Below the pieces are notes generated by a model. The model was not told the DNA's origin. It saw only the letters and a program-made list of their open reading frames with translations, and ran no database searches. From an uncultured virus (IMG/VR IMGVR_UViG_3300030380_004460) (taxonomy: Duplodnaviria; Heunggongvirae; Uroviricota; Caudoviricetes), in the IMG/VR virus record IMGVR_UViG_3300030380_004460: 20,000 nucleotides of DNA, one strand, 5' to 3'. The number at the start of each line of letters is the position of its first letter. The first letter of the stretch is position 1. Shown here piece after piece: positions 3,400 through 20,000 of the stretch. Made by a program: the position numbers and the translations under genes.

Positions 3400-3541
3400 A
3401 TTTATCTACTTCCCCCCAATCTGTGACGTGACATTCAGGACATCCCCATCCATTAAGGATACCAAAAGCACCTTCATACTTTTTCTTAAACATTACACAG
3501 TTACACGTTTTACAGACTGGAATAGCTTTTATTTTTTTCAT
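3386..3541 (-). CDS. Small zinc-ribbon protein (51 aa)
   Basis: MKKIKAIPVCKTC...GCPECH; ATG 3541 overlaps the polB stop (ATGA). Confidence 0.7.
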   Translation of the reverse strand: MKKIKAIPVCKTCNCVMFKKKYEGAFGILNGWGCPECHVTDWGEVDKYVSK

Positions 3542-5766
3542 ACAAACTCCAATAAACTCTTTTGATTTCGGTCTACAACTGTTAGGTTTGGCTTCTTTCG
3601 AACCCAAGAGTCTAAACTAAACTTTTTCAAAAGGTTGTTAATAATATCCCAGTGATACTTTATATCTATTTCGCCGAGAGACTCAACAGTTTCTTCTACT
3701 TTGTAACCTTCTTTAGTTTTGTAGTAATAGAATGTAGTGCCGGGTCCTGTACGCATACCAAGTTGTTTACCTTGTTTAGCAAGTTGTACTATCAAATCAT
3801 TTTCACCAACATAATCTTCTATGTTTCTATTCATAGCTCTAGTCTGTAAAAAGTCTTCAAGAACAAAGTTATCAAAGTCATACAAATCCTCTACAAAGTC
3901 AGCGTTAACAACGTTGTCTAACCGTGCCATTGTTATCTTTTTAAGCACCTTCAAGTAAAACGGTGACCTTGTTTTTGCCTTGAAAGTAGAACCGTGTTTA
4001 GTTAAACTACCGTCTTCATTTCGTAATACATAGTTACCTATCTGTAACCACACACCCTCTTTGAAAACATCTTTATCTACTCTAACCCATTCCGGTTCAC
4101 TACCTGTAAAAAAGCTTTCAACACCTTTCTGTAATTGTTTGTTAATCCAATCTGTATCTATATCTTTGTTTGTATTGATACCGTCAGTGTGTATGTACAC
4201 AACTGAGTTTTCACCATACTTCATTTCAATAAGTTTCTTTGCTCCCATTATCAACCAACGAGCAACTCCGGTGATTGCAATACCTACAGATATATCTCCA
4301 TATGTCATATACGGATTAGTATTAGCACCGTAGAATGTATTGACCATAATCTTAATACCGTTCGATTTACTCTTAGCTTCGTGAGTCTTTAGTTTCTTAA
4401 ATGGTTTACGTATGTTGTTAAAGTTCTTACACATAGTATACAAACCAGATTTAAATGACTGGTCTACTCTTATAATTACATTTTTATTGATAACGTTATC
4501 TGGTATAGTAAGATACATAGCATTCTGTTTAAATGTACAATTAAACGCACTGATGTCATAATCTTCATATCCTTCTATTGTGGTAGTATCAGGGCCTAAA
4601 TTTAAAGTCATAGCAATACTAGGATACATAGATGCAAAATCTACTTTGTAGTTTTCTTTATGAAAACCCGGCAGATACAAGTCTATATGTGCTGCTTGAA
4701 AACTTTTATTCTCTGGATATCTATCTATATTTTTATCTATGGTTAATATATTCTTTTTATATAAATCTCTACCTTGCAATATTTTAGTTATAAACGAATC
4801 TGCTGAGTTTATATACAACTCCAACGGAACTCCTAATGTCTCAGCAATATAACAGTGTTGTACAAAGTAGTGTTCAAACAACCATTTAGTAATATCACAG
4901 TCGCTCAACACATACTCATTAACTGTTTCTATATCGTAATCAAGAATGTCTTTTTCACTAAAATCTAACTCAATAGGGTCGTGACCATAAAATCTTGCAA
5001 CATCTTTTAATCTCTTTCGAATACCCGCTAATGCGTAGTCCCTACTTGTAAAGTTGTAAACATCAATAATAACTCTACCCCACGTTTGTATTCTTGTTTT
5101 CTTGTGATAAGAAAAGTCAGTCTCCCATCCGAATGATGAGTTGTTCTCTCTATTCAACTTAGGTTTTAAGTTGATACCGTGTTTACCAGCTCGAGCAAAC
5201 AGTTGTGGGATATCGTATCCAATCAAGTTGTAACCATATAATATATCTGGGTCGTAATCGTTGATGAAGTCAGCAAACTTTTCTATTATCTCTTTATCAC
5301 TTTCACCGTCCCATAGTAATGATTCTCTATGTCCATCGCTTGTGACGTATCCTATAGCTACGATTGGGTGTTTATCACCTAACGGAAACGAACCATCAGC
5401 AGACGTTACTTCTAAATCAAACCCTAAAGACTTAACATTTTCTTGAGGGTATCCATTGAAAAATTCAGGTTTCTCAATGCAAATCCTCTCTATCTCGTTG
5501 TTTGTAACACCATCTAACTTAGCGTATGACGGTATTGTCTCAGGATGTAACTCTTTCGCATTGTTAACATACTTCTTTGTGTACTTTCTATTCTCGTGGC
5601 CTAAAACTTTGTACTCTTCTCCATCTTTATCAGGTATGTAATAATGATGGTCTCTTGGTGACTTGACTATTCTTTTTTCGCCGTTAACCCAAACAATAAT
5701 TTGTTGTTCTCCCGTCATTCTGTTGACGGTATGATTGCTACTCATAGCAATCAAAGGTATTTTCAT
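3538..5766 (-). CDS. polB: Family B DNA polymerase with 3'-5' exonuclease and C-terminal PIP box
   Basis: ExoI FDLE, ExoII GYNLIGYDIPQL, ExoIII YVLSD; polymerase motifs VDFASMYPSI, KIMVNTFYG, YIHTDG; C-terminus QKSLLEFV. Confidence 0.97.
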   Translation of the reverse strand: MKIPLIAMSSNHTVNRMTGEQQIIVWVNGEKRIVKSPRDHHYYIPDKDGEEYKVLGHENRKYTKKYVNNAKELHPETIPSYAKLDGVTNNEIERICIEKPEFFNGYPQENVKSLGFDLEVTSADGSFPLGDKHPIVAIGYVTSDGHRESLLWDGESDKEIIEKFADFINDYDPDILYGYNLIGYDIPQLFARAGKHGINLKPKLNRENNSSFGWETDFSYHKKTRIQTWGRVIIDVYNFTSRDYALAGIRKRLKDVARFYGHDPIELDFSEKDILDYDIETVNEYVLSDCDITKWLFEHYFVQHCYIAETLGVPLELYINSADSFITKILQGRDLYKKNILTIDKNIDRYPENKSFQAAHIDLYLPGFHKENYKVDFASMYPSIAMTLNLGPDTTTIEGYEDYDISAFNCTFKQNAMYLTIPDNVINKNVIIRVDQSFKSGLYTMCKNFNNIRKPFKKLKTHEAKSKSNGIKIMVNTFYGANTNPYMTYGDISVGIAITGVARWLIMGAKKLIEMKYGENSVVYIHTDGINTNKDIDTDWINKQLQKGVESFFTGSEPEWVRVDKDVFKEGVWLQIGNYVLRNEDGSLTKHGSTFKAKTRSPFYLKVLKKITMARLDNVVNADFVEDLYDFDNFVLEDFLQTRAMNRNIEDYVGENDLIVQLAKQGKQLGMRTGPGTTFYYYKTKEGYKVEETVESLGEIDIKYHWDIINNLLKKFSLDSWVRKKPNLTVVDRNQKSLLEFV

Positions 5767-6038
5767 CCTAGCGGCCCCTTACTATTCTGTGGTAAGTCAT
5801 CATCATCTCCGTCTACCGTAGGTAGTATGCTAATTAAATCCACTGCCTCTTCTATACTCAACGACCATACCTTATGCATAATATGTTGTTCTGTAGGTTG
5901 CGCTCCCATAATAACAGGAGCAGTCTCTTCTGCTTTTTTCTTATGATGTATTGCGCATCCTCTCAGCAAATCTAACCACTGTTCTCGGTTTATTGCTTGT
6001 CTGTTCTTTTCTAAATCTTTCATTTCTTCTTCTGTCAT
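5763..6038 (-). CDS. Hypothetical protein
   Basis: 91-aa ORF with 4-nt overlaps at both ends. Confidence 0.75.
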   Translation of the reverse strand: MTEEEMKDLEKNRQAINREQWLDLLRGCAIHHKKKAEETAPVIMGAQPTEQHIMHKVWSLSIEEAVDLISILPTVDGDDDDLPQNSKGPLG

Positions 6039-6310
6039 CTCAAAAACTCCGGTACTTTATCTTTTATTCTATTTGCTTGTGTCTTAGTATATCTAAAAAC
6101 AACGTCGCCTTTAGTGTCCTCTTGTACAGTCCACTTCTTAACTATCACTAAATCTCCAACTCTCACCCATACTTTCTTTTTCATCTTTCCTACAATACGG
6201 CACATTCTATTTTTTTCATCTTCACAGATTACTGTTGCTCTAGCTGCGCCATTCATTTCCCTAACCACACCAAACATTTCACCTCTTGGTGCGTAGGGTA
6301 GTTTATTCAT
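6035..6310 (-). CDS. eif1a: Archaeal translation initiation factor aIF-1A (eIF1A homolog, OB fold)
   Basis: GEMFGVVREMNG...VICEDEKNRMCRIVGKMKKKVWVRVGDLVIVKKW...KGDVVFRYTKTQ matches the aIF-1A/eIF1A consensus; start ATG 6310 after GGTGG. Confidence 0.93.
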   Translation of the reverse strand: MNKLPYAPRGEMFGVVREMNGAARATVICEDEKNRMCRIVGKMKKKVWVRVGDLVIVKKWTVQEDTKGDVVFRYTKTQANRIKDKVPEFLR

Positions 6311-7682
6311 ACCAACCACCGTAGTCTATATCGTCAGTCTTAACTTCTACTGCTGGTAAATCAGCAGCTAAAACGTGTTTTGTATTATCAAATGGGTTAA
6401 TTACTTCAACTTCTGTGCAGTAGTTACGAATGTATTCTTCTGCAATTTCTGGCCAAGTTTGTCTCATCAAATCAGCAGTACCACGCATCAACTCTCCCCA
6501 ATCAATTTTTGTACTTGGTTCTCTTACTAATGCTGACTTAAAGTATGTTATTTTCTTATCTTCTTCTTCTTGTTCTAAAAATCCTAACATAACTAAAGAC
6601 GTAAGTAAAGGATTGATGTTCTTCTGAGCAAACGGCAACCCAGCTTGACGTGCAGCTTGTTGTATCTCTTTCTTAGTCATCTTGATTACTTCTGCTGTAA
6701 CCATACCAAACTTATCTATCTCTGTGTCAGGTATCAGTTTAAGTATATCTGTACCGTGTGATGGCATCTGTAAACATTCTGTCACAAACGTGTCAATGTA
6801 AATTTGTGTTGCTAGCCAATTATGTTTAGGTGTTATCAACCCATACTGCACACCGTCTCTTTCTACTCTAACTAACTCGCCGGGGTAGAATCTAGCAACT
6901 GCATTGATTAACTTAAGATAGTAATGAACTTTACTTCTAGCTATAGGAAATAATGTTGGTATCAAATCATACAAGAAAGGAGCACAAGGATTTCTTACTT
7001 TAACACCCTTACTGTCATCCCTTTCTATAATACAATTAGCAATATGTTTTTTTAGTGCTTCTATCTCTTCATCTTCCATAGTAACTAAATCTTCGTGTGG
7101 TTTAGCAAAAGTATCTAGTTTGTACTTAATAACATCTTCAGTTTGTTTTACTGTAGGATTTGTATGTGTTACCATATACCTACGTTCTAACTCAGCATCT
7201 AAGAATGCATCACCTCTTTTATTCTCTACTGCCTTACAGACAAACACAAACTTAGGGTGTAACACTTGTTCTCTAACATCTTGTATGGTCACATCAGTTC
7301 TCTTTCTAACTGCTGCCCTATCATCTGCCCACGTTTTTAATATCTCAATAATAGCTTCTGGACATTTCTGTGCTTCAGGTATTGCAAGGAATCTTGATGA
7401 ATTTATTCTATCCATATCATACCACAGTGCTGTTTCAGACATTTGTTCTACAACAGTATATGGTATACCTGTACCTTCTAGTAAGTTAAACACAGCATTC
7501 ATAATAACAGTTTTACCTGTACCACTGTATGCATTAATCATAAAATTAGTGTCTTCTAGTAAGTAAGACAGTGCTGCAGTTACAGCAAGTTTGTCTTCAC
7601 CTATGATAGGGACGTGTTCGCCCTTTTCATTCCTTACGTTATGAAAATACCTAACTAAATCGGTAAGTTCAAACTGGCTCAA
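6303..7682 (-). CDS. AAA+ ATPase / MCM-like helicase with C-terminal winged helix
   Basis: Walker A AYSGTGKT, SETALWY, Walker B-like FLAIPE, Arg finger ELERRY; wHTH-like MTKKEIQQ...LTSLVMLGFLEQ. Confidence 0.75.
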   Translation of the reverse strand: MSQFELTDLVRYFHNVRNEKGEHVPIIGEDKLAVTAALSYLLEDTNFMINAYSGTGKTVIMNAVFNLLEGTGIPYTVVEQMSETALWYDMDRINSSRFLAIPEAQKCPEAIIEILKTWADDRAAVRKRTDVTIQDVREQVLHPKFVFVCKAVENKRGDAFLDAELERRYMVTHTNPTVKQTEDVIKYKLDTFAKPHEDLVTMEDEEIEALKKHIANCIIERDDSKGVKVRNPCAPFLYDLIPTLFPIARSKVHYYLKLINAVARFYPGELVRVERDGVQYGLITPKHNWLATQIYIDTFVTECLQMPSHGTDILKLIPDTEIDKFGMVTAEVIKMTKKEIQQAARQAGLPFAQKNINPLLTSLVMLGFLEQEEEDKKITYFKSALVREPSTKIDWGELMRGTADLMRQTWPEIAEEYIRNYCTEVEVINPFDNTKHVLAADLPAVEVKTDDIDYGGWYE

Positions 7683-8362
7683 TTCCTAAACTCCTTTGCT
7701 TTTTTCAAGTCAATCACTCCATTTTCTAATAATCTAATCGCAAATTTCTTTGCTTCTTTATCATCAACGTTTGATATCTCTTTAATCTTTAAGAATAAAT
7801 CAATCAAACTGATGGGGTGACCGTCTAAGTCAACCAACTTAATGACTAACTCTTCAGGCACTACCCATCTAAAATCTCTCACTATGTTCTGAAATGCATT
7901 TAGCGGAGAGGGTCTAAATACTTCTTTGACAAACATATCTTCACTGCTTTTCTTGATACTATATCCAGAAACTTTGTTACCTGATAAATTAGTTATCTTA
8001 GTTTTTGATATTTCAAATACTAAATCACAAGGATTAATATTATCATCAAGCAGGTCAGAGAAGATATTCTGTATAAGTGTGTGAGATGAAAGGTTTACAC
8101 TACTCATATACTTGATAGTTGAATCTCCACGTTCTATGAATATTCCATATGTGTAGTCATTTACTTTCATTATACCGTTATCACAGTATACACACTTACC
8201 AGTTCTCTCAGCCCAACAGTCTACTCTTTTGTTTTTACTTTGCACATAGTGTTTCACTCTATGCAAAGGATTAACAAACGCAAACTGTGCCAGAGCAGTC
8301 ATTGAGTCTTGTAACCAGACTCTCTCGCTTCTGTTAGACTGTATCCAATCACTAAAGCTCAA
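7679..8362 (-). CDS. Putative gp32-like zinc-binding ssDNA-binding protein
   Basis: KHYV...VDC-x7-CVYC metal motif within a beta-rich (OB-like) region; lies directly upstream of the helicase. Confidence 0.55.
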   Translation of the reverse strand: MSFSDWIQSNRSERVWLQDSMTALAQFAFVNPLHRVKHYVQSKNKRVDCWAERTGKCVYCDNGIMKVNDYTYGIFIERGDSTIKYMSSVNLSSHTLIQNIFSDLLDDNINPCDLVFEISKTKITNLSGNKVSGYSIKKSSEDMFVKEVFRPSPLNAFQNIVRDFRWVVPEELVIKLVDLDGHPISLIDLFLKIKEISNVDDKEAKKFAIRLLENGVIDLKKAKEFRN

Positions 8363-9635: not shown

Positions 9636-9963
9636 TGTAATCCTCCTTATTTGCTTTACGTTTACCTTTAGGTAACTCGTCTAATAATCCTAATCCCTTT
9701 TCCATCATTTTATTCATCTTAAGTATATTTTGCTCAAAAAACTTTACATATGCTAATAATATTACTTCATCTCTTTTAGTCATAATGTATGTGCTTGACA
9801 TTTTTTCTAATGTAGGAACTATTGCAATAGGCTCTAATTCCATAAATATTTTCAACCATTTTTCAAAAACTGCTTTGTCTTCTTTGTTTTCCAGCAAAGG
9901 TTCGATGTCTATATCTATTTCGTCATCGTTTGCCATTTCTAGAAACTTTTCAATTAAAGACAT
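9616..9963 (-). CDS. Hypothetical protein
   Basis: 115-aa helical ORF in operon order. Confidence 0.72.
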   Translation of the reverse strand: MSLIEKFLEMANDDEIDIDIEPLLENKEDKAVFEKWLKIFMELEPIAIVPTLEKMSSTYIMTKRDEVILLAYVKFFEQNILKMNKMMEKGLGLLDELPKGKRKANKEDYNGSMFG

Positions 9964-9969
9964 AAATTT

Positions 9970-10473
9970 TCAATCATCCTCTGTATTTAAAAGTATTGAT
10001 AAATCATACCGCACGGGTTTAGGTAATCTATCCAATTCTATACCTAACTTTTCAATTACATCCCATTTAACGGACTTTTTAGTGGCACTTTTATACATCA
10101 TAGATACTTGGGATGGGGTCAGTGCATAAACACGTTTATTGCGCGGTATGTCTCTTCTGATAAAGAACCACGCTTCACCACCCTCTTTCACTAAATCCTG
10201 TGCATACTCTATTTGGTGCTCAGGTATAGCAGGTGTTTTATTATAATACAATGGGAATGATGTTTTGTTTCTGCTCGTTTTACACTCTATTAATATTGGT
10301 CTACCTTGATATACAGCAAAGAAATCGCCGGGTTGCTTCTCTGCAACTGCTTTCTTGACGAATCTTGATACATCATTAGTATCTTGTATTCTAAACCACC
10401 AACACCCAGCGTCATCTAACGATTTGCGTATCTCCCACTCAAAGTTCTTACCTGTATAATTATTAGTCTTCAT
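9970..10473 (-). CDS. Holliday junction resolvase (Hjc/RecU-type PD-(D/E)XK)
   Basis: GKNFEWEI...PGDFFAVYQGRPILIECKTS...IPEHQI...GGEAWFFI. Confidence 0.85.
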   Translation of the reverse strand: MKTNNYTGKNFEWEIRKSLDDAGCWWFRIQDTNDVSRFVKKAVAEKQPGDFFAVYQGRPILIECKTSRNKTSFPLYYNKTPAIPEHQIEYAQDLVKEGGEAWFFIRRDIPRNKRVYALTPSQVSMMYKSATKKSVKWDVIEKLGIELDRLPKPVRYDLSILLNTEDD

Positions 10474-13914: not shown

Positions 13915-14628
13915 TTAAAATCTTGGGTGCGGCATACCTCCAATTTGCCAATCTCTCGTAACTTCACCGTCAGTCCATATAAGATGCCCTGCTCTCATAA
14001 TTTGTCTACCATCTTCACTAAATGAACCATTAAATGTGTTGACCCATTCATCATAAGTCATATGCATCAATACATATAGTCTGTAGCTCATAGCTCGTTT
14101 TAACGAACTAGAATGATAGTCAGGAAATACTTCTTCGCAATATGCTTGGTAAAGTTCATTGTGAGTATCATCAAGCCTTAAATCTCTGTTTGATGAGTAT
14201 ATCTCAGGAATATTCACGTTGCCTGTAATAAAGTGATGTGACCCGCTGTAATGCTCATCAGCAGTGCGATAAGGCCATCCTTGTCTTTGACCAGTTTTAT
14301 ACAGCACAATATCTCCTGTGATTGAATCGTCATCAAGACCACCCAGCAATCTAGTGTGTATGATGCTGTCATACCTTTGCGTTTCGAACTTGATTGTCCG
14401 ACCGTTCTTTTTGTAGAGCACAACCCATCTTCTACAACGGGTTTCACCTTGTATACGATGAAATATCTCAAGTTCTTGCTCAGTAAACTGATTGCGTGTG
14501 CAGTTTCTCACTAGCGAAGCGTGAGGCCTTGAAAAGTCATCCATTATATCACCTAACTCAGCGATAATATGAACTCTTTCGCGGTCTTCTTTGAACTTCT
14601 CAGCGTTGATTACTATTGTCTGTGTCAT
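13915..14628 (-). CDS. Hypothetical protein flanked by BHB elements
   Basis: 237 aa, SD GGAG; no recognised motif. Confidence 0.8.
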   Translation of the reverse strand: MTQTIVINAEKFKEDRERVHIIAELGDIMDDFSRPHASLVRNCTRNQFTEQELEIFHRIQGETRCRRWVVLYKKNGRTIKFETQRYDSIIHTRLLGGLDDDSITGDIVLYKTGQRQGWPYRTADEHYSGSHHFITGNVNIPEIYSSNRDLRLDDTHNELYQAYCEEVFPDYHSSSLKRAMSYRLYVLMHMTYDEWVNTFNGSFSEDGRQIMRAGHLIWTDGEVTRDWQIGGMPHPRF

Positions 14629-14635
14629 TTGTGTT

Positions 14636-14747
14636 CTCCATTTGTGGGGAAGGAAGCCGTAGGAACAGGGGAAATTGCAAAACCCCTATGTTGAAAGCGA
14701 AACAAACTAAACAAACTGTGTTTGACTTCCTTCCTGTCCACTGCGAG
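14636..14747 (-). ncRNA. BHB-closed structured RNA element 2 (predicted 94-nt excisable RNA)
   Basis: CUC(G)CA-GUGG-ACA-GGAAGGAAGUC ... GGCUUCCUUCC-CCAC-AAA-UGGAG: full hBHBh' geometry, 11-bp stem; internal AUAGGGG/CCCCUGU hairpin. Confidence 0.75.
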
Positions 14748-14773
14748 TGTTGTGCTGCGGGGAGACCGGAGCA

Positions 14774-15091
14774 CTATTTTTTTATCCTCCTGAGTAAACT
14801 CTTTTCACGGCGAGATGTACCAATGATTCTTTTTCTTTTGACAGCTCTTGCGTGTTCAAGTTGCTTACGAAGTACTTCTTTGCGTTTTTCTGTGTTAGCA
14901 ATAAACACAGTTCTACCGTCATCATTTGTGAATACAGAGTATCGTAACTCTGTTCGCTTCATTTCATCTGGAAAGAACTCTCCAGAACAGCACGCACATC
15001 TGTAACATTCGTGATTGTGTTTAGTTTCATTAACTAATCTAACATTGCCGCCATCGTCACAATCAGGGCATTCTATCTTTACTTGAACCAT
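14774..15091 (-). CDS. Zinc-ribbon protein with basic C-terminus
   Basis: CPDC...CACC; TAATG overlap with the peptidase stop. Confidence 0.75.
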   Translation of the reverse strand: MVQVKIECPDCDDGGNVRLVNETKHNHECYRCACCSGEFFPDEMKRTELRYSVFTNDDGRTVFIANTEKRKEVLRKQLEHARAVKRKRIIGTSRREKSLLRRIKK

Positions 15092-16392
15092 TATTCTTCC
15101 TCCATATCAAAAGCATTTGCTTGTTCTGCAATCTTCAAAGCATCTTCGAAGTCTTGCATTTCTTTGATTGAAATCACTGCGTCAGTTCCGTCGCCACCAC
15201 TACCGATTACGATGTACTGATTGACTTCTGATAACTCCACAAAGAAGTCGCTCCATCCCTCATCAATCACAATAGATTTGTGAGACGCACTGAGATAGAC
15301 GTGACCTTTGCTTTGTAATGCATCGAACATACCAATACTACCTGTTGCATCTTCAATGTGGTCCATAATAGCATCGAACATATCAAGTGCTTCGTCAAGG
15401 TCTACATCAGTCTTACTACTGTAAACACCAGAGCTGTTACTGTAGTATTTGATACCATTGTATTCTGTTTGGCTGTATGCATCATATCTTTCGTAGTTTG
15501 CATAACTGTAAACACCGCCACCCCAACTGTATGAAGCAGTAGGTTTGTATTTGATGTTATCAGGATTTAGACTGAAGTATGTATGAAGCGTTGGTGCAAG
15601 ATACTCGATGAATTGAACTGCTTGCATAAGTTCTTCGTATACAACATACTCACTACCACTGTGTGCATTGTAGTAACCAGCGAATAGATTGATGCCATTG
15701 ATTTGTAACTCTTTGACAATATTGCTGACATCTGATATAGAACCGGTGGATGTCTTGAGACCAAAGTCTTTGCCCCACTCACCGAGCTTTGCATCAAGTT
15801 TGTCAGAGCACAGTTGAACGTCACTGTTCTTGGTGATGATTTCGTCACAACCACGGCGGTCGATAGTAATGTTGAACACAACGTCATCGAACATATCTTT
15901 GTGATTGGACATAGCGAAGTCACTACCGTTTAGTCCTGTCTCTTCTGCTACACATAGTAACCCTGACAGCGGGGTAACTAGCGTTCTGTTGGTGATACAC
16001 TTGAGGACAGCGAATACACCACACTTGTCGTCACCGCCAATAACTTGATTGTTAGTTGAACGGAATACTGTCTTACCATCTTTCTGCTCCTCAACAACTT
16101 CAGGGACAGCAGAACCAACTGTGTCCATATGTGCGTTGAGAAGTATGCGGCGGTCTCCCTCGATGTGATTGGTGAAATAGATATTACCCATACTGTCTAC
16201 AGTATGCTCTATCTCATTGTCACGGAGGTAGTTCGTCACAAATGCAATCATAGGATGTTCTGCTCCACTAGGACTGAATATATCAAACATAGATTTCAGC
16301 AGTGTCTTGTCATCCATTGATGCAGTAGAAACAGGGAAAGCAGTTAGACGACTGTCTTTTGCTTCTGTTTTCATTTCTGTTTTAGTTTTCAT
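15091..16392 (-). CDS. M20/M28-family zinc metallopeptidase/hydrolase
   Basis: LNAHMDTV, GGDDKCG, AEETGLNGS, IDRRG, GSISD, GYYNAH; true start probably ATG 16392 (MKTKTE) after GGAG rather than 16665. Confidence 0.88.
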   Translation of the reverse strand: MKTKTEMKTEAKDSRLTAFPVSTASMDDKTLLKSMFDIFSPSGAEHPMIAFVTNYLRDNEIEHTVDSMGNIYFTNHIEGDRRILLNAHMDTVGSAVPEVVEEQKDGKTVFRSTNNQVIGGDDKCGVFAVLKCITNRTLVTPLSGLLCVAEETGLNGSDFAMSNHKDMFDDVVFNITIDRRGCDEIITKNSDVQLCSDKLDAKLGEWGKDFGLKTSTGSISDVSNIVKELQINGINLFAGYYNAHSGSEYVVYEELMQAVQFIEYLAPTLHTYFSLNPDNIKYKPTASYSWGGGVYSYANYERYDAYSQTEYNGIKYYSNSSGVYSSKTDVDLDEALDMFDAIMDHIEDATGSIGMFDALQSKGHVYLSASHKSIVIDEGWSDFFVELSEVNQYIVIGSGGDGTDAVISIKEMQDFEDALKIAEQANAFDMEEE

Positions 16393-18091
16393 TGTTTGCT
16401 CCAATAATTTTGTAATCGTAATCGGACATAGTTTCTTGCATAGCATAGTCACCTTGTCCGCCGTTGCGAATGCCAACCACTCTAGTGTGTTGTGCCTCGT
16501 CTTGATAATAGGAATAGTCGGCAGAACTGTCACGAGGTTTAGTGTGCCAGAAGGCAAACCATCGTTGAGTCTGCAGCGATTTGTTGACCGTGCGGTCAGT
16601 AAAGTTGAAACTGTCTCGTATATAACTGTAAACGCTCGAGTCGTGTCTTGAGCTGGAATATGCAATCATCCGATGCGAATCAAATGCTGTGTATGCCCAA
16701 GCATCTATCTGTTTAAATAGCTGGACATAGAACTCTTTCTTTGCTTGAGTGTTTCGCTTTAAATAGAGACGTGAAGGAGCAACAGACACAGGTTCGCTGT
16801 CATCATCCCAGTTGTGTTTGAAAAATCTGATAACCGAGCGACCAATGATTTCGTTGTTGTCATCACGGATAAGAGCAAAGAGGTGAGGGTTGACCAGCAA
16901 ATCTGCAAAGCCAAAGCTGTAAGAACCACGATTAGATTGGTCTTGACAAGAGCCGACACTCGCATTGAACTCGGCAACATCTTTTAGGTCTGTTGGGTCA
17001 AAACCGATTTGCAGTGGATACTCGACATCAACAGCATTGGTTAGATACTGATTGTATCGTTTTGCTGCCAATTGGTCATCCATTCTTCGTAAGTTGAAAT
17101 AGTCAAAGCGTTCTTTGAGTGAACGATTGAAGACATTAGTAACTGCTCGTCGTAGATTACCACCATCTTCAGTCTTGTTAGTGCGCAGCATTTCTGTAAT
17201 CTTTTCTGCGTAAGAACCTTCTACACTGTAGCGGTTCAAATCTGTAACAACAGATTCGAAATCGATTGCTGTGCCACCACGATAGTTGTAACTGTCACCG
17301 TTTTGCCGGTCATAGTATTTGATACAGCTGTGAAACAAGTGACGTAAAGGATGATAAAGGCCGTATTTTTTGTGACGTGTAAAGAACAATTCACTACCAA
17401 TCATCTCTTTGAGAATGTAAGCAAAGTCTTTGTAAATCGGCGATGCGACTTTGATACAGCTTTCTGCATAACCAAAGCTGTTAAGTTCCAAACCGCCCTT
17501 GAGAATCTGTAAGTTGCTGTGTTCGTAATTGTCGTTGTTGTAACTGTAAAACCAATTCAGTTGTGACTGAGCAGATGAACTTAGCGATTGATAACTACCA
17601 GACACGACATCGTGGTCAAGCCAGCGATGAACATCATCTGCAAGGCTGGACTCAGGATTGTGGTAGCAGTCATAACAAAGTTCACTGTCTCCATAATCTG
17701 TCCCAGCGTCAGTAAAATACATAGTGCGGTCACAACGAGAACAGCTCCAAGATAACTCTTGGTCGCTAGCGTGGTCACTACAGCAAGACTCACCGTATTG
17801 TTCATCATAATAATAATCGCCGTGGTCTGTGTTGATAAGTTCGCCACAATACTCACAGCTTGACATATTGTTAGAGCAATCAGAACACACCGGTTCTCCA
17901 GAACAAGTGCTGTAAGGTGCATTGTCGTTTGTGAAAGTTTCTCCGCAGCCATCACAACACACCATATTGTTGTGACAGTCAGAGCATACAATCTCATACT
18001 GATGGGTTGACTCAATGACGGCATCTTCTTCGAGGTCAGTCGAGCAGACTTCGCATTGGCAATTGCTGTTGTTTGTTTCTTCTTCCGGCAT
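16382..18091 (-). CDS. Multi-CxxC repeat protein with uncharacterised C-terminal domain
   Basis: About 8 CxxC/CxxH knuckles in the first about 145 aa; C-terminal GSCQD...NPHLFALIRD...GRSVIR...SRLY; SD AGGAG. Confidence 0.85.
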   Translation of the reverse strand: MPEEETNNSNCQCEVCSTDLEEDAVIESTHQYEIVCSDCHNNMVCCDGCGETFTNDNAPYSTCSGEPVCSDCSNNMSSCEYCGELINTDHGDYYYDEQYGESCCSDHASDQELSWSCSRCDRTMYFTDAGTDYGDSELCYDCYHNPESSLADDVHRWLDHDVVSGSYQSLSSSAQSQLNWFYSYNNDNYEHSNLQILKGGLELNSFGYAESCIKVASPIYKDFAYILKEMIGSELFFTRHKKYGLYHPLRHLFHSCIKYYDRQNGDSYNYRGGTAIDFESVVTDLNRYSVEGSYAEKITEMLRTNKTEDGGNLRRAVTNVFNRSLKERFDYFNLRRMDDQLAAKRYNQYLTNAVDVEYPLQIGFDPTDLKDVAEFNASVGSCQDQSNRGSYSFGFADLLVNPHLFALIRDDNNEIIGRSVIRFFKHNWDDDSEPVSVAPSRLYLKRNTQAKKEFYVQLFKQIDAWAYTAFDSHRMIAYSSSRHDSSVYSYIRDSFNFTDRTVNKSLQTQRWFAFWHTKPRDSSADYSYYQDEAQHTRVVGIRNGGQGDYAMQETMSDYDYKIIGANNEN

Positions 18092-18136
18092 TATTTTTTC
18101 TCTCCTAGCTTTTTATTTTTCCCAACACGCTCCGAA

Positions 18137-18148
18137 TATATAATACCT
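18137..18148 (-). promoter_or_regulatory. TATA-box promoter candidate
   Basis: CAAGGTATTATATA about 46 nt upstream of ATG 18091; resembles CAAGGCTTTATATA at 19596. Confidence 0.6.
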
Positions 18149-18167
18149 TGTTTGAGCAGTATTTGGT

Positions 18168-18223
18168 TGTGTGCCGCAGCATAATTCTCTTTTCTCAGCG
18201 CAATCTCACGCTGCGGGGTGCAC
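18168..18223 (-). ncRNA. Imperfect BHB-like hairpin (element 4)
   Basis: GUGC-ACCC-CGCAGCGUGA ... UUAUGCUGCG-GCAC-ACA: 4-bp helix and 10-bp stem with 2 G.U pairs, but the 5' bulge is 4 nt. Confidence 0.45.
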
Positions 18224-18243
18224 GGCGGCATAACGGAAAATTT

Positions 18244-18322
18244 ATTTGTCGGGATAGGAATAGAGCACTGTGAAAGTGAAAAGCATAAAGAAAATTTTTG
18301 CTCCACTCCCATCCTATCGACT
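18244..18322 (-). ncRNA. BHB-closed structured RNA element 3 (predicted 70-nt excisable RNA)
   Basis: A-GUCG-AUA-GGAUGGGAGUGGAGCA ... UGCUCUAUUCCUAUCC-CGAC-AAA-U: 16-bp stem with 3 G.U pairs. Confidence 0.75.
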
Positions 18323-18325
18323 GCT

Positions 18326-18523
18326 TTAATCATCACAACCTCCGCCGTATTTACCTCTCATCCACCAGCGAGGTTCTTCCATTTCGCTAACTTCACCCCA
18401 TTGTTCGTGGTCAATACTGCCGTCTTTGAACAACGGAGCAGTTTGTAAATTCATATCGTTACCTTCGCCTACCCAGCGATATGCATTGCCGGGAAATTCT
18501 TTAATGTAAAATACTTCGGTCAT
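18326..18523 (-). CDS. Hypothetical protein
   Basis: 65 aa; ATGA overlap. Confidence 0.7.
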   Translation of the reverse strand: MTEVFYIKEFPGNAYRWVGEGNDMNLQTAPLFKDGSIDHEQWGEVSEMEEPRWWMRGKYGGGCDD

Positions 18524-18882
18524 CTTCGCTTCCTCCTGATTAGTCTGCCGTCTACACGACTCGTGTCGCTGTGATAAGTATATTTGCCGTGGATTCCACC
18601 GCTTTTATACCCTACTCCGCCGAGTTTCTTTATCTCCAGCAGTATCTTGTCTCGCAGCTTTTTCTCTGCTAAGACTGTAAACATTGCTTTGAGAAAGTCA
18701 TCCATTGCTAACTCGTGTATATCATCTGCTTTCTTTTCAAACCACACAGCAGTTGACTGTTTAATTGCTTCTTTAATCTTGCCGTCAGTCGGATGTAGAT
18801 TGAGCATAGGTTTGGTATAACCCAGCCGTTTAAAATAAGCCAGCATATCTCTGACCCGTTCTGCTTCTTTTTTAGTCAGCAT
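18520..18882 (-). CDS. Hypothetical basic protein
   Basis: Probable start MLTKKEAERV at 18882 (GGAGG 9 nt upstream); the ORF track gives 18963. Confidence 0.72.
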   Translation of the reverse strand: MLTKKEAERVRDMLAYFKRLGYTKPMLNLHPTDGKIKEAIKQSTAVWFEKKADDIHELAMDDFLKAMFTVLAEKKLRDKILLEIKKLGGVGYKSGGIHGKYTYHSDTSRVDGRLIRRKRR

Positions 18883-19147
18883 AGTGTTCATCCTCCGTGC
18901 TGTCATTATATCCAGCCTCATATGATTCTTCGGCAATCTTACACAATGCCAGCGTATGTTCATTTTCCAGCTCTTTCTTTAAACCCCAGCGCATCTTTCT
19001 TACAATGCCGTTAACGTTACTCACTGCTTCTAGTTGTTGCGGCGTTAAATATTTACGCAGCATATTCCATTTCTCTCGCTCCCATTTATCAAGACAATGC
19101 TCCCACTTTTCTACATCGCTCATTTCATTCCACTCTTTGCTGCTCAT
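18872..19147 (-). CDS. Hypothetical protein
   Basis: 91 aa; ATGA overlap. Confidence 0.72.
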   Translation of the reverse strand: MSSKEWNEMSDVEKWEHCLDKWEREKWNMLRKYLTPQQLEAVSNVNGIVRKMRWGLKKELENEHTLALCKIAEESYEAGYNDSTEDEHYAD

Positions 19148-19530
19148 ATTTTCACATCCAGCTGTTTGGTTCCTATCCAGCGATTTTTCATATCAGTAGT
19201 GCCGTGGTATAATCTACCCTCAGCAAGGTTAGTATGCATACGGCGCATTGTTTGCTCGGACTCTTTGATTCGCTCGACCATTTCAGATTTTGCTCGCTTG
19301 TAACCATCTGATTGAGCATTAGGATTACCTTGTGCTCTTTCAAATGCAATACAGCGTATAACATCGCTGGGATGGGGTCTTAGCGGATTGAATCGCTTCT
19401 TCAAATCACGGCAGGTTTTCTTGCCGGTTTTTCTTCGGGGTTTTGCTGACTTGCCCATCTTTTGCAGCAACTTCTCTAATAAGAGCAATTGCTTTTCAGA
19501 TAGAGCATCTATATCTATGTTTTGCTTCAT
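19144..19530 (-). CDS. Hypothetical basic protein, first gene of the putative early transcript
   Basis: 128 aa, downstream of a TATA box. Confidence 0.72.
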   Translation of the reverse strand: MKQNIDIDALSEKQLLLLEKLLQKMGKSAKPRRKTGKKTCRDLKKRFNPLRPHPSDVIRCIAFERAQGNPNAQSDGYKRAKSEMVERIKESEQTMRRMHTNLAEGRLYHGTTDMKNRWIGTKQLDVKI

Positions 19531-19595
19531 TTTCTTTCACTTCCAGCACTCCATTTTTTAGTAGGAGCACAGTAAAAAATACAATACGCTGAGAT

Positions 19596-19607
19596 TATAT
19601 AAAGCCT
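19596..19607 (-). promoter_or_regulatory. Archaeal TATA-box promoter (putative early promoter)
   Basis: AGGCTTTATATA, identical to 8598-8609; followed by a leader hairpin GTGCTCC...GGAGTGC. Confidence 0.7.
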
Positions 19608-19619
19608 TGTACCAGCGGT

Positions 19620-20000
19620 TTTTCTCACCCCAGCACACAGCACTGCTATAAACTACATCCAGCATAGCGTTAAAAATCGCGGGGGAGCATAACGTATACT
19701 ATAGAGCTATACGTTAGGCCTTACAGCAATATTATAAGCTTATGTTAAGTCTAAGCTTAATAGAGCAATAAAAGAAGAAAGTGCTATACAGTATATACTA
19801 CATAGCACTATAGTACTATATAGAGCTATAATATACACTTCGACGTATGCCTTTAGTAATACAGCAAACGCACACACACTGTAGCATTCTAGTTTTGGGC
19901 AAGCGTATGAAAAAGAGGGGGAGCACAACGTATGGCTGCCCGAATTTTGCTCAGAGCGCAAGCGGATGCTCTCAGCAGTACCTCCCGCTGCAGCAGACCG
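19620..20000. repeat. Non-coding repeat/palindrome region (candidate origin or genome terminus)
   Basis: 17-nt direct repeat GGGGGAGCA(T/C)AACGTAT at 19681 and 19917; inverted repeats 19690-19716 and 19780-19809; palindrome TATAGTACTATA 19809-19820; many AGCA tetramers. Confidence 0.6.

Follow-up and report, generated by a model that had tools for sequence, protein, structure and literature searches.

Virus-borne translation initiation factors are known already. Huge phages carry IF1 and IF3, and eIF1A genes reportedly occur in Klosneuvirus- and Tupanvirus-like viruses. IF1, in turn, is described in the available text of PMC9226500 as the bacterial orthologue of the archaeal factor aIF1A. Here, we analyzed a 20,000-nucleotide stretch of DNA (the window) from an uncultured tailed virus, which corresponds to bases 4–20003 of the IMG/VR record IMGVR_UViG_3300030380_004460 (54,852 bp, linear, 78% complete according to CheckV). 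Positions 6035–6310 of the window encode, on the minus strand, an aIF-1A/eIF1A homologue of 91 amino acids (P0001). New here is the occurrence of aIF1A in archaeal tailed viruses with genomes of about 70 kb, for which we found no earlier report.

The window virus shares a virus-encoded eIF1A family with the giant eukaryotic viruses (Nucleocytoviricota). However, the latter possess genomes of 0.2–2 Mb with many translation genes, whereas the window virus combines a genome of ∼69 kb with this one factor and shows no tRNA gene in the 54.9 kb of its record. A representative of the giant viruses was also recovered from IMG/VR (L071, 212,706 bp). It encodes a eukaryote-type eIF1A at positions 9941–10447 (168 amino acids including a C-terminal tail, 34% identity), located beside Rpb2, MutS, and a protein kinase, and this giant eukaryotic virus contig lies outside the viral clade of the window. 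Compared with the IF1 of jumbo phages, the concept of a phage-borne initiation factor is the same, but the window virus belongs to another host domain and has a far smaller genome, and its aIF1A is conserved and syntenic across a whole viral family, in which it is near-core instead of a sporadic accessory.

In the preliminary description of this DNA, translation factors had been called uncommon in archaeal viruses, and the searches agree with that statement. A tblastn search with aIF1A returned nothing from 50,697 GenBank phage and archaeal virus records (INPHARED), aIF1A has no PHROG family, and no report of an aIF1A encoded by an archaeal virus was found in full-text literature searching. 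The main texts of three surveys of archaeal viruses (PMC11706807, PMC5474096, and PMC13465236) do not mention an initiation factor; their supplementary gene tables, which could list one, were not covered. The literature search also returned no paper on viruses of Marine Group III (MGIII) archaea. The family B DNA polymerase (PolB) of the window virus shows only 22–23% identity to INPHARED phages, namely Salinibacter and Microcystis phages.

The open reading frame (ORF) of the window aIF1A consists of 91 codons followed by a TGA stop; its strand had been missing from the preliminary description. The sole possible extension is a GTG at position 6319, three codons upstream, which would add three residues. 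The protein matches the Pfam family PF01176 (eIF-1a) over the full profile (64/64, E-value of 4.8e-19, 68.2 bits compared with a cut-off of 30.2) and the NCBIfam model NF003084 “translation initiation factor IF-1A” (107.7 bits, cut-off of 91). Among solved structures, the best sequence match is aIF1A from Pyrococcus abyssi (E-value of 2.4e-24), with Methanocaldococcus aIF1A also among the best, followed by eukaryotic eIF1A structures at ∼1e-11.

The AlphaFold2 model of the window protein (from a 50-row alignment) has a mean predicted local distance difference test score (pLDDT) of 90.8. The predicted fold is a five-stranded oligonucleotide/oligosaccharide-binding (OB) barrel (strands at residues 11–19, 24–29, 34–39, 54–59, and 67–73) with a short helical C-terminal subdomain (helix at residues 76–81). 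The model superposes well with the crystal structure of P. abyssi aIF1A (PDB code 4MNO; template modeling (TM) score of 0.92, root mean square deviation of 1.3 Å) and with ribosome-bound aIF1A (PDB code 7ZAI; TM score of 0.87). The window gene encodes an aIF-1A/eIF1A, far beyond chance, and its description as a clear homologue of this family was correct.

Similar to the cellular archaeal aIF1As of known structure (4MNO and 30S-bound 7ZAI/7ZAH), with which it shares 47–49% identity, the window protein features the OB fold, the C-terminal helices, and the CED loop. As the reference for conservation, we used the 23 columns of the alignment in which 120 non-viral rows show a conservation of at least 85%. 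The window aIF1A retains 20 of these 23 columns (the changes are G32E, P59K, and L82I), the 38 viral aIF1A sequences retain 19–22, and the non-viral rows 15–23. Residues Cys-29, Asp-31, Arg-35, Arg-38, Gly-41, Trp-48, Asp-53, Trp-60, and Asp-69 are invariant across all 38 viral sequences. The loop between β-strands 2 and 3 (C29-E30-D31 in the window protein) aligns with residues 41-CEDGKI-46 of P. abyssi aIF1A. According to the available text of PMC9226500, this loop and the C-terminal helix touch aIF5B on the 30S subunit, and the cysteine and aspartate of the loop are strictly conserved in archaea.

The window protein differs from cellular archaeal aIF1A at both ends. Only three residues precede the conserved LP motif (at most six with the GTG start) instead of about 15, and in the alignment P. 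abyssi aIF1A has ∼12 additional N-terminal residues. The closest relatives (P0003, P0005, and the contigs of L116/L060, L118/L062, and L119–120/L063–064) possess equally short N-terminal tails of 3–5 residues. Most other viral copies carry a basic tail of about 14–16 residues in the form MKKxxKxS...KxKLP. When a basic N-terminal tail of at least ∼12 residues is taken as the measure, the window protein falls short of it, but most of its viral relatives reach it. The very short tail noted in the preliminary description is real, but it is a derived trait of the subgroup of the window and not of viral aIF1A generally. In the same subgroup, the region of the C-terminal helix lacks two residues and ends earlier than in other sequences, both viral and cellular; the full C-terminal helix is kept, together with the normal basic N-terminal tail, in most viral copies. 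A role of the eIF1A N-terminal tail in start codon recognition is known from the yeast literature, and one may speculate that a tail cut to 3–6 residues could alter the stringency of start site selection.

The viral aIF1A genes evolve under constraint. The ratio of nonsynonymous to synonymous substitution rates (dN/dS, Nei–Gojobori) was determined for 92 non-independent pairs with dS of 0.05–1.5; its median is 0.13, and the values span 0.037–0.40, none of them above 1. The closest viral pairs (dS of 0.41–0.57) yield dN/dS values of 0.05–0.12. These sequence comparisons indicate that viral aIF1A is under purifying selection and is maintained in the virus.

The contig is a genuine tailed virus genome and not a cellular flank. 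The record encodes a major head protein (phrog_24667, E-value of 4.8e-25), and the remainder beyond the window carries a class II ribonucleotide reductase, a tape-measure protein, and portal fragments. The possibility that the contig is a cellular chromosome, which had been raised at the outset, is at odds with these capsid, tape-measure, and portal genes. A probable primase-polymerase on the record has a weak phrog_18685 match only. The window also encodes a RecU-type resolvase, a PD-(D/E)XK nuclease, an N6/N4 methyltransferase, glycosyltransferases, and an M42-like peptidase. The exact 91-amino acid protein is found on 78 contigs, the longest of which measures 68,696 bp, and its 90% identity cluster comprises 89 members; one related PolB is present on 145 contigs. 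DNA of the window is present in metagenome runs from 14 studies of marine and estuary sites (four rows may represent the source sample), and RNA runs are absent among the matches listed.

Viral aIF1A is not confined to a single genome. A first profile scan of IMG/VR returned 12 contigs, 11 of which show the gene order of the window with PolB proteins that are 48–88% identical. When the scan was repeated with a profile built from the viral proteins, it returned 40 contigs of 6.6–81 kb besides that of the window. This survey of viral contigs, as proposed in the preliminary description, found aIF1A in the same slot throughout: PolB is located downstream in 40/40 loci (with PolB identity down to 47%), and a P-loop ATPase directly upstream in 38/40, the remaining two being cut by the contig end. 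The shared slot in the relatives reads P-loop ATPase, aIF1A, (small ORFs), and PolB. Independent ascertainment through a profile of the ATPase gave 45 loci, 43 of them with at least 400 nucleotides downstream, and aIF1A follows the ATPase gene directly in 37 of these 43. In the unrooted ATPase tree, both deep groups contain aIF1A. The six loci without it can be accounted for by two changes, since five of them (four being near-identical) form a clade and the sixth stands alone, and both lie nested among carriers. The simplest reading of this tree is that aIF1A is ancestral and was probably lost twice. Taken together, aIF1A is a near-core syntenic gene of an abundant marine tailed virus family with genomes of about 65–80 kb.

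Individual loci deserve mention. The closest relative of the window virus is a 75,525-bp IMG/VR contig (L116, identical to L060), the ATPase and PolB of which are 88–89% identical to those of the window, with 72% identity for the small ORF and only 61% for aIF1A. Local accelerated divergence or an exchange at the locus could explain this pattern; since the aIF1A of L116 is sister to the window clade (99/93), fast divergence appears preferable to replacement. In L162, which lacks aIF1A, the ATPase gene is directly followed by a small ORF, then by squalene/phytoene-synthase-like and MazG-like genes, and then by PolB. The synthase-like gene (L162:6973–7946) matches PF00494 with an E-value of 3e-28. 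A 108-amino acid protein from a 797-bp metagenome contig (P0012) consists of an N-terminal half resembling eukaryote-type eIF1A and a C-terminal half near-identical to the window protein, joined at a conserved GKMKKKVW stretch, and is probably a chimeric assembly. The only return of the single-protein IMG/VR scan (L002) was discarded as a 17-residue chance match on a contig with a G+C content of 0.60 and unrelated genes.

In the window, aIF1A lies inside a replication operon, as initially stated, with a P-loop ATPase gene upstream and the PolB gene downstream. The gene upstream (positions 6303–7682, minus strand) encodes a protein of 459 amino acids with a GTGKT Walker A motif, and its TAA stop (6303–6305) lies within an 8-nucleotide overlap with the start of aIF1A (ATG at 6310–6308; ATGAATAA). 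The TGA stop of aIF1A shares four nucleotides with the start of a conserved small ORF of 91 amino acids (ATGA at 6035–6038; ORF at positions 5763–6038, minus strand), the end of which overlaps by another ATGA with the start (5766) of the gene for PolB (742 amino acids; positions 3538–5766, minus strand; PF03104, PF00136, phrog_262). Upstream, the gene for a 227-amino acid protein (positions 7679–8362, minus strand) overlaps with the ATPase gene by 4 nucleotides, so that the chain of overlaps links five genes (227-amino acid protein, ATPase, aIF1A, 91-amino acid ORF, and PolB). A Shine–Dalgarno-like GGTGG (positions 6316–6320, minus strand) precedes the aIF1A ATG by 6–10 nucleotides and thereby falls within the terminal part of the ATPase gene (a motif scan places GGTG at −10); it probably serves as the Shine–Dalgarno element of aIF1A. 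A similar motif occurs at most 22 nucleotides upstream in 14 of the 21 window genes. The preliminary description had placed aIF1A between a helicase and polB and considered it translationally coupled to both. The order and the overlaps on both sides hold, but the 91-amino acid ORF intervenes and is the downstream coupling partner instead of PolB, and the helicase label is unproven.

The 459-amino acid protein matches only phrog_12057, a family of unknown function (E-value of 4.9e-32), and no Pfam family or PDB sequence. In the ESM atlas, it falls into viral clusters with PF27228, a plasmid and virus replication family, in 10–25% of the members; a distant pointer to superfamily 3 helicases comes from one remote cluster, 15% of which carries PF00910 (RNA_helicase). 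The protein is a probable replication ATPase, with helicase activity as a lead only. Nine homologues of the 91-amino acid ORF align with invariant residues Arg-18, Trp-21, Leu-25, His-32, and His-55, and the ORF has no Pfam or PHROG match. It features an acidic stretch near the C terminus. Many relatives have it conserved at the corresponding position behind aIF1A, and it persists where aIF1A is absent (L162).

The 227-amino acid protein is a candidate gp32-like ssDNA-binding protein with an invariant H-x10-C-x7-C-x2-C motif (His-38, Cys-49, Cys-57, and Cys-60 in the alignment) and, as a lead, a winged-helix C-terminal part. Its model has a pLDDT of 72. Structural alignment by VIA-align returned the OB fold of BRCA2 (Z-score of 6.3), gp32 of phage T4 (Z-score of 6.0 over 141 residues), and gp32 of phage RB69 (Z-score of 5.5), all below 8, and a Foldseek search with the model gave nothing at an E-value of 0.001 or better (gp32 at a probability of 0.66). 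RPA is also among the best structural neighbors, which are ssDNA-binding OB proteins. On the basis of the model, the 227-amino acid protein may be the ssDNA-binding protein (SSB) of the virus.

Some further features of the record were observed. A 1318-amino acid protein of the structural module (positions 42529–46485 of the record; L004:6529–10485, minus strand) begins with a lectin-like domain, comprises three concanavalin-like Laminin_G_3 domains, and is probably a fiber or adhesin. It recalls the 6-kb “LamGL-like” gene that the available text of PMC11706807 describes for magrovirus group A. Magrovirales (viruses of Poseidoniales) are marked by a chaperonin and a near-complete replication set of the archaeal type; in comparison, the 54.9 kb of the incomplete (78%) record yielded no chaperonin, PCNA, or RFC. 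Positions 14000–20000 of the window have a G+C content of 0.41–0.44 compared with 0.32–0.39 elsewhere in the window. This part encodes a 569-amino acid protein with many CxxC pairs (positions 16382–18091). The M42-like peptidase ORF (positions 15091–16665) overlaps with it when read from its distant TTG start, and the true start of the peptidase is probably located further in than the TTG.

The nearest cellular relatives of the window aIF1A are those of the Thermoplasmatota (the MGIII “LPYKPKGEM” type, the Marine Group II (MGII)-like type, and Thermoplasmatales) with 49–60% identity. A pattern scan of GTDB returned 55 loci, which belong to Thermoplasmatota (Thermoplasmatales, MGIII, and Poseidoniia), are unclassified, or, in two cases, belong to Micrarchaeota, with best identities of 56–58%; this list is biased because the patterns were derived from Thermoplasmatota-like rows. 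Among 201 genomes from the phylum of an MGIII genome, 194 matched, the best with 60% identity, and no cellular genome among these 201 and the 55 loci exceeds this value. A phmmer search over 1.84 billion representatives gave nothing at an E-value of 1e-30 or better and a top match of 56% identity. The nearest metagenome group consists of 98-amino acid proteins with 64% identity and is also viral (L062). One of the loci in GTDB, on a contig titled “bacterium isolate clean2775” (L046), has a near-twin of its aIF1A in a metagenome-assembled genome of Thermoplasmatota (L047), and the “bacterium” label looks wrong.

We calculated a careful tree from 76 rows and 113 columns, a hand-picked subset in which 21 of the 38 viral rows were kept and 11 long-branch representatives were dropped. 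In this tree, 20 of the 21 viral rows and two unlabelled metagenome representatives form one clade (ultrafast bootstrap (UFBoot) of 100 and Shimodaira–Hasegawa-like approximate likelihood ratio test (SH-aLRT) support of 94), a topology that points to a single viral origin. The exception is a divergent viral copy (L142), which groups with the MGIII clade (99/84) and may represent a chimeric assembly or a second capture. The 31,465-bp contig of this copy (L142/L171/L166) contains two ATPase genes, one followed by aIF1A and the other without it. In a quick tree of 161 rows, the viral clade falls within a set of 122 rows, which includes all rows labelled as Thermoplasmatota and is separated from the other representatives with an SH-aLRT of 99; within this set, the sister link of the viral clade to MGIII is weak (SH-aLRT of 64). 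Approximately unbiased (AU) tests do not reject one clade of all viral rows (p = 0.34), nor a grouping of the viral rows with MGIII (p = 0.43, Δ lnL of 1.4) or with the MGII-like rows (p = 0.19, Δ lnL of 9.3).

Because the alignment offers only ∼113 columns, the donor can be placed to Thermoplasmatota only. The tree favors MGIII, and the LPYxPxGEM motif common to viral and MGIII aIF1A points likewise, but the AU tests do not separate MGIII from the MGII-like group. In contrast to the viral proteins, MGIII-type aIF1As carry N-terminal extensions of 20–70 residues (in first-ATG gene models), and the presumed MGII aIF1As from 14 genomes carry acidic C-terminal tails of 100 or more residues with DDDD-LFG repeats. 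The phylogeny suggests that the virus family probably infects Thermoplasmatota archaea, possibly MGIII. The viral ATPase profile matched none of the 401 genomes from the class to which an MGIII genome belongs, and no binned contig provided a host link, in a search that had no positive control. The preliminary description had proposed aIF1A as a host marker and its phylogeny as a means to assign the host lineage: the gene serves this purpose at the level of the phylum, with a viral clade among Thermoplasmatota, but not for the lineage, given that the AU tests reject no grouping and leave MGIII and MGII-like unseparated.

The explanation we favor, and consider fairly probable, is a genuine and functional virus-encoded aIF-1A that sustains or tunes initiation in the host. 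The gene would have been captured once, from a Thermoplasmatota-like archaeon, by an ancestor of marine tailed viruses with PolB-type replication, and would since have been inherited vertically in its fixed slot in the replication operon. The factor would be made together with the replication proteins, bind to the A site of the host 30S subunit like cellular aIF1A, and work with aIF2 and aIF5B of the host. In this way, it could supplement or replace the aIF1A of the host during the take-over, so that initiation would continue or be tuned toward the Shine–Dalgarno-led polycistronic mRNAs of the virus. For the haloarchaeal tailed virus HFTV1, the available text of a preprint (10.64898/2026.09.13.751334) reports that only a few translation genes of the host are sustained in infection, including aIF1, aIF5B, and aIF1A, whereas aIF2 and aIF6 fall. 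By analogy, this pattern is in line with a demand for these factors, although it concerns another virus.

Several observations weigh against a factor with the conventional function. The window protein scores 95.8 bits with the NCBI model TIGR00523, below the equivalog cut-off of 102.9, and the equivalog level denotes the same function as the cellular factor; this shortfall fits the missing N- and C-terminal ends of the protein. The three departures from the consensus and the loss of the N-terminal tail in the window subgroup point in the same direction. Furthermore, the gene is dispensable in some relatives, as indicated by its absence from 6 of 43 loci. The long branches in the viral clade and the 61% identity of aIF1A compared with 88–89% for its flanks in the closest relative would also fit a changed role, and the fixed position between replication genes could mean a role in replication instead.

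A changed role within translation is conceivable, although we rate it as rather unlikely. Viral aIF1A would then represent an old virus-specific branch of the IF1/aIF1A/eIF1A family that co-evolved with the replication module, and its tail-less form in the window subgroup would actively reprogram start site selection on host ribosomes, for example by favoring Shine–Dalgarno-led re-initiation on viral polycistrons over leaderless or monocistronic host mRNAs. With a genome of merely ∼70 kb, the virus would thereby take over translation initiation in an archaeon.

It is more doubtful that the OB fold was recruited to the viral replisome for ssDNA or primer binding, or as an RNA chaperone, and no longer takes part in translation. 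OB and S1-like folds bind nucleic acids in general, the position between the replication ATPase and PolB is invariant with coupling on both sides, and no Pfam-recognizable SSB is present in the 54.9 kb. However, the residues that stay invariant are those for contacts to the ribosome and aIF5B, not those for generic nucleic acid binding, and dN/dS is as low as 0.04–0.12 in close pairs. The zinc motif and the OB matches (Z-scores of 5.5–6.3) of the 227-amino acid neighbor, although weak evidence, also make that protein the better SSB candidate.

We give still less credence to a dominant-negative or decoy function, in which the viral protein would occupy the A site of the host 30S subunit and its altered tails would block or derail host initiation, leading to host shut-off. 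The N-terminal tail of 3–6 residues in the window subgroup, compared with 14–16 in most viral relatives and ∼12 extra residues in P. abyssi, would suit such a decoy, as would the C terminus shortened by the deletion and the early end and the fast divergence relative to the flanking genes. On the other hand, the normal basic tail and full C-terminal helix of most viral copies, and the retention of the aIF5B contact loop and of 19–22 of the 23 conserved residues, speak against it. Moreover, an A-site blocker would also halt the translation of the virus itself, unless its mRNAs are independent of aIF1A, for which there is no indication.

That aIF1A is a passenger or an artefact (a recent accidental pick-up of a host gene, a chimeric assembly, or cellular DNA wrongly recorded as a virus) is highly improbable and refuted as far as sequence data allow: IMG/VR records are metagenomic, this one is linear and incomplete, and the chimeric form P0012 exists, but structural virus genes are located on the same contig, the same slot is filled in the 40 further viral contigs, the viral copies form one old clade under purifying selection according to dN/dS, the cellular genomes examined stay within 60% identity, and the window DNA recurs across studies.

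Translation genes are usually regarded as typical of giant viruses and huge phages. The present case concerns ordinary-sized tailed viruses of uncultured marine archaea, which have kept one universal initiation factor, and the viral copies form a separate, fast-evolving clade. The family also provides a compact natural experiment on the part of aIF1A and its tails in archaeal initiation, a subject with little work beyond Pyrococcus, Saccharolobus, and Haloferax. Finally, aIF1A is a marker gene for recognizing this viral family and offers a phylum-level hint at the host for viruses of Thermoplasmatota, possibly of MGIII.

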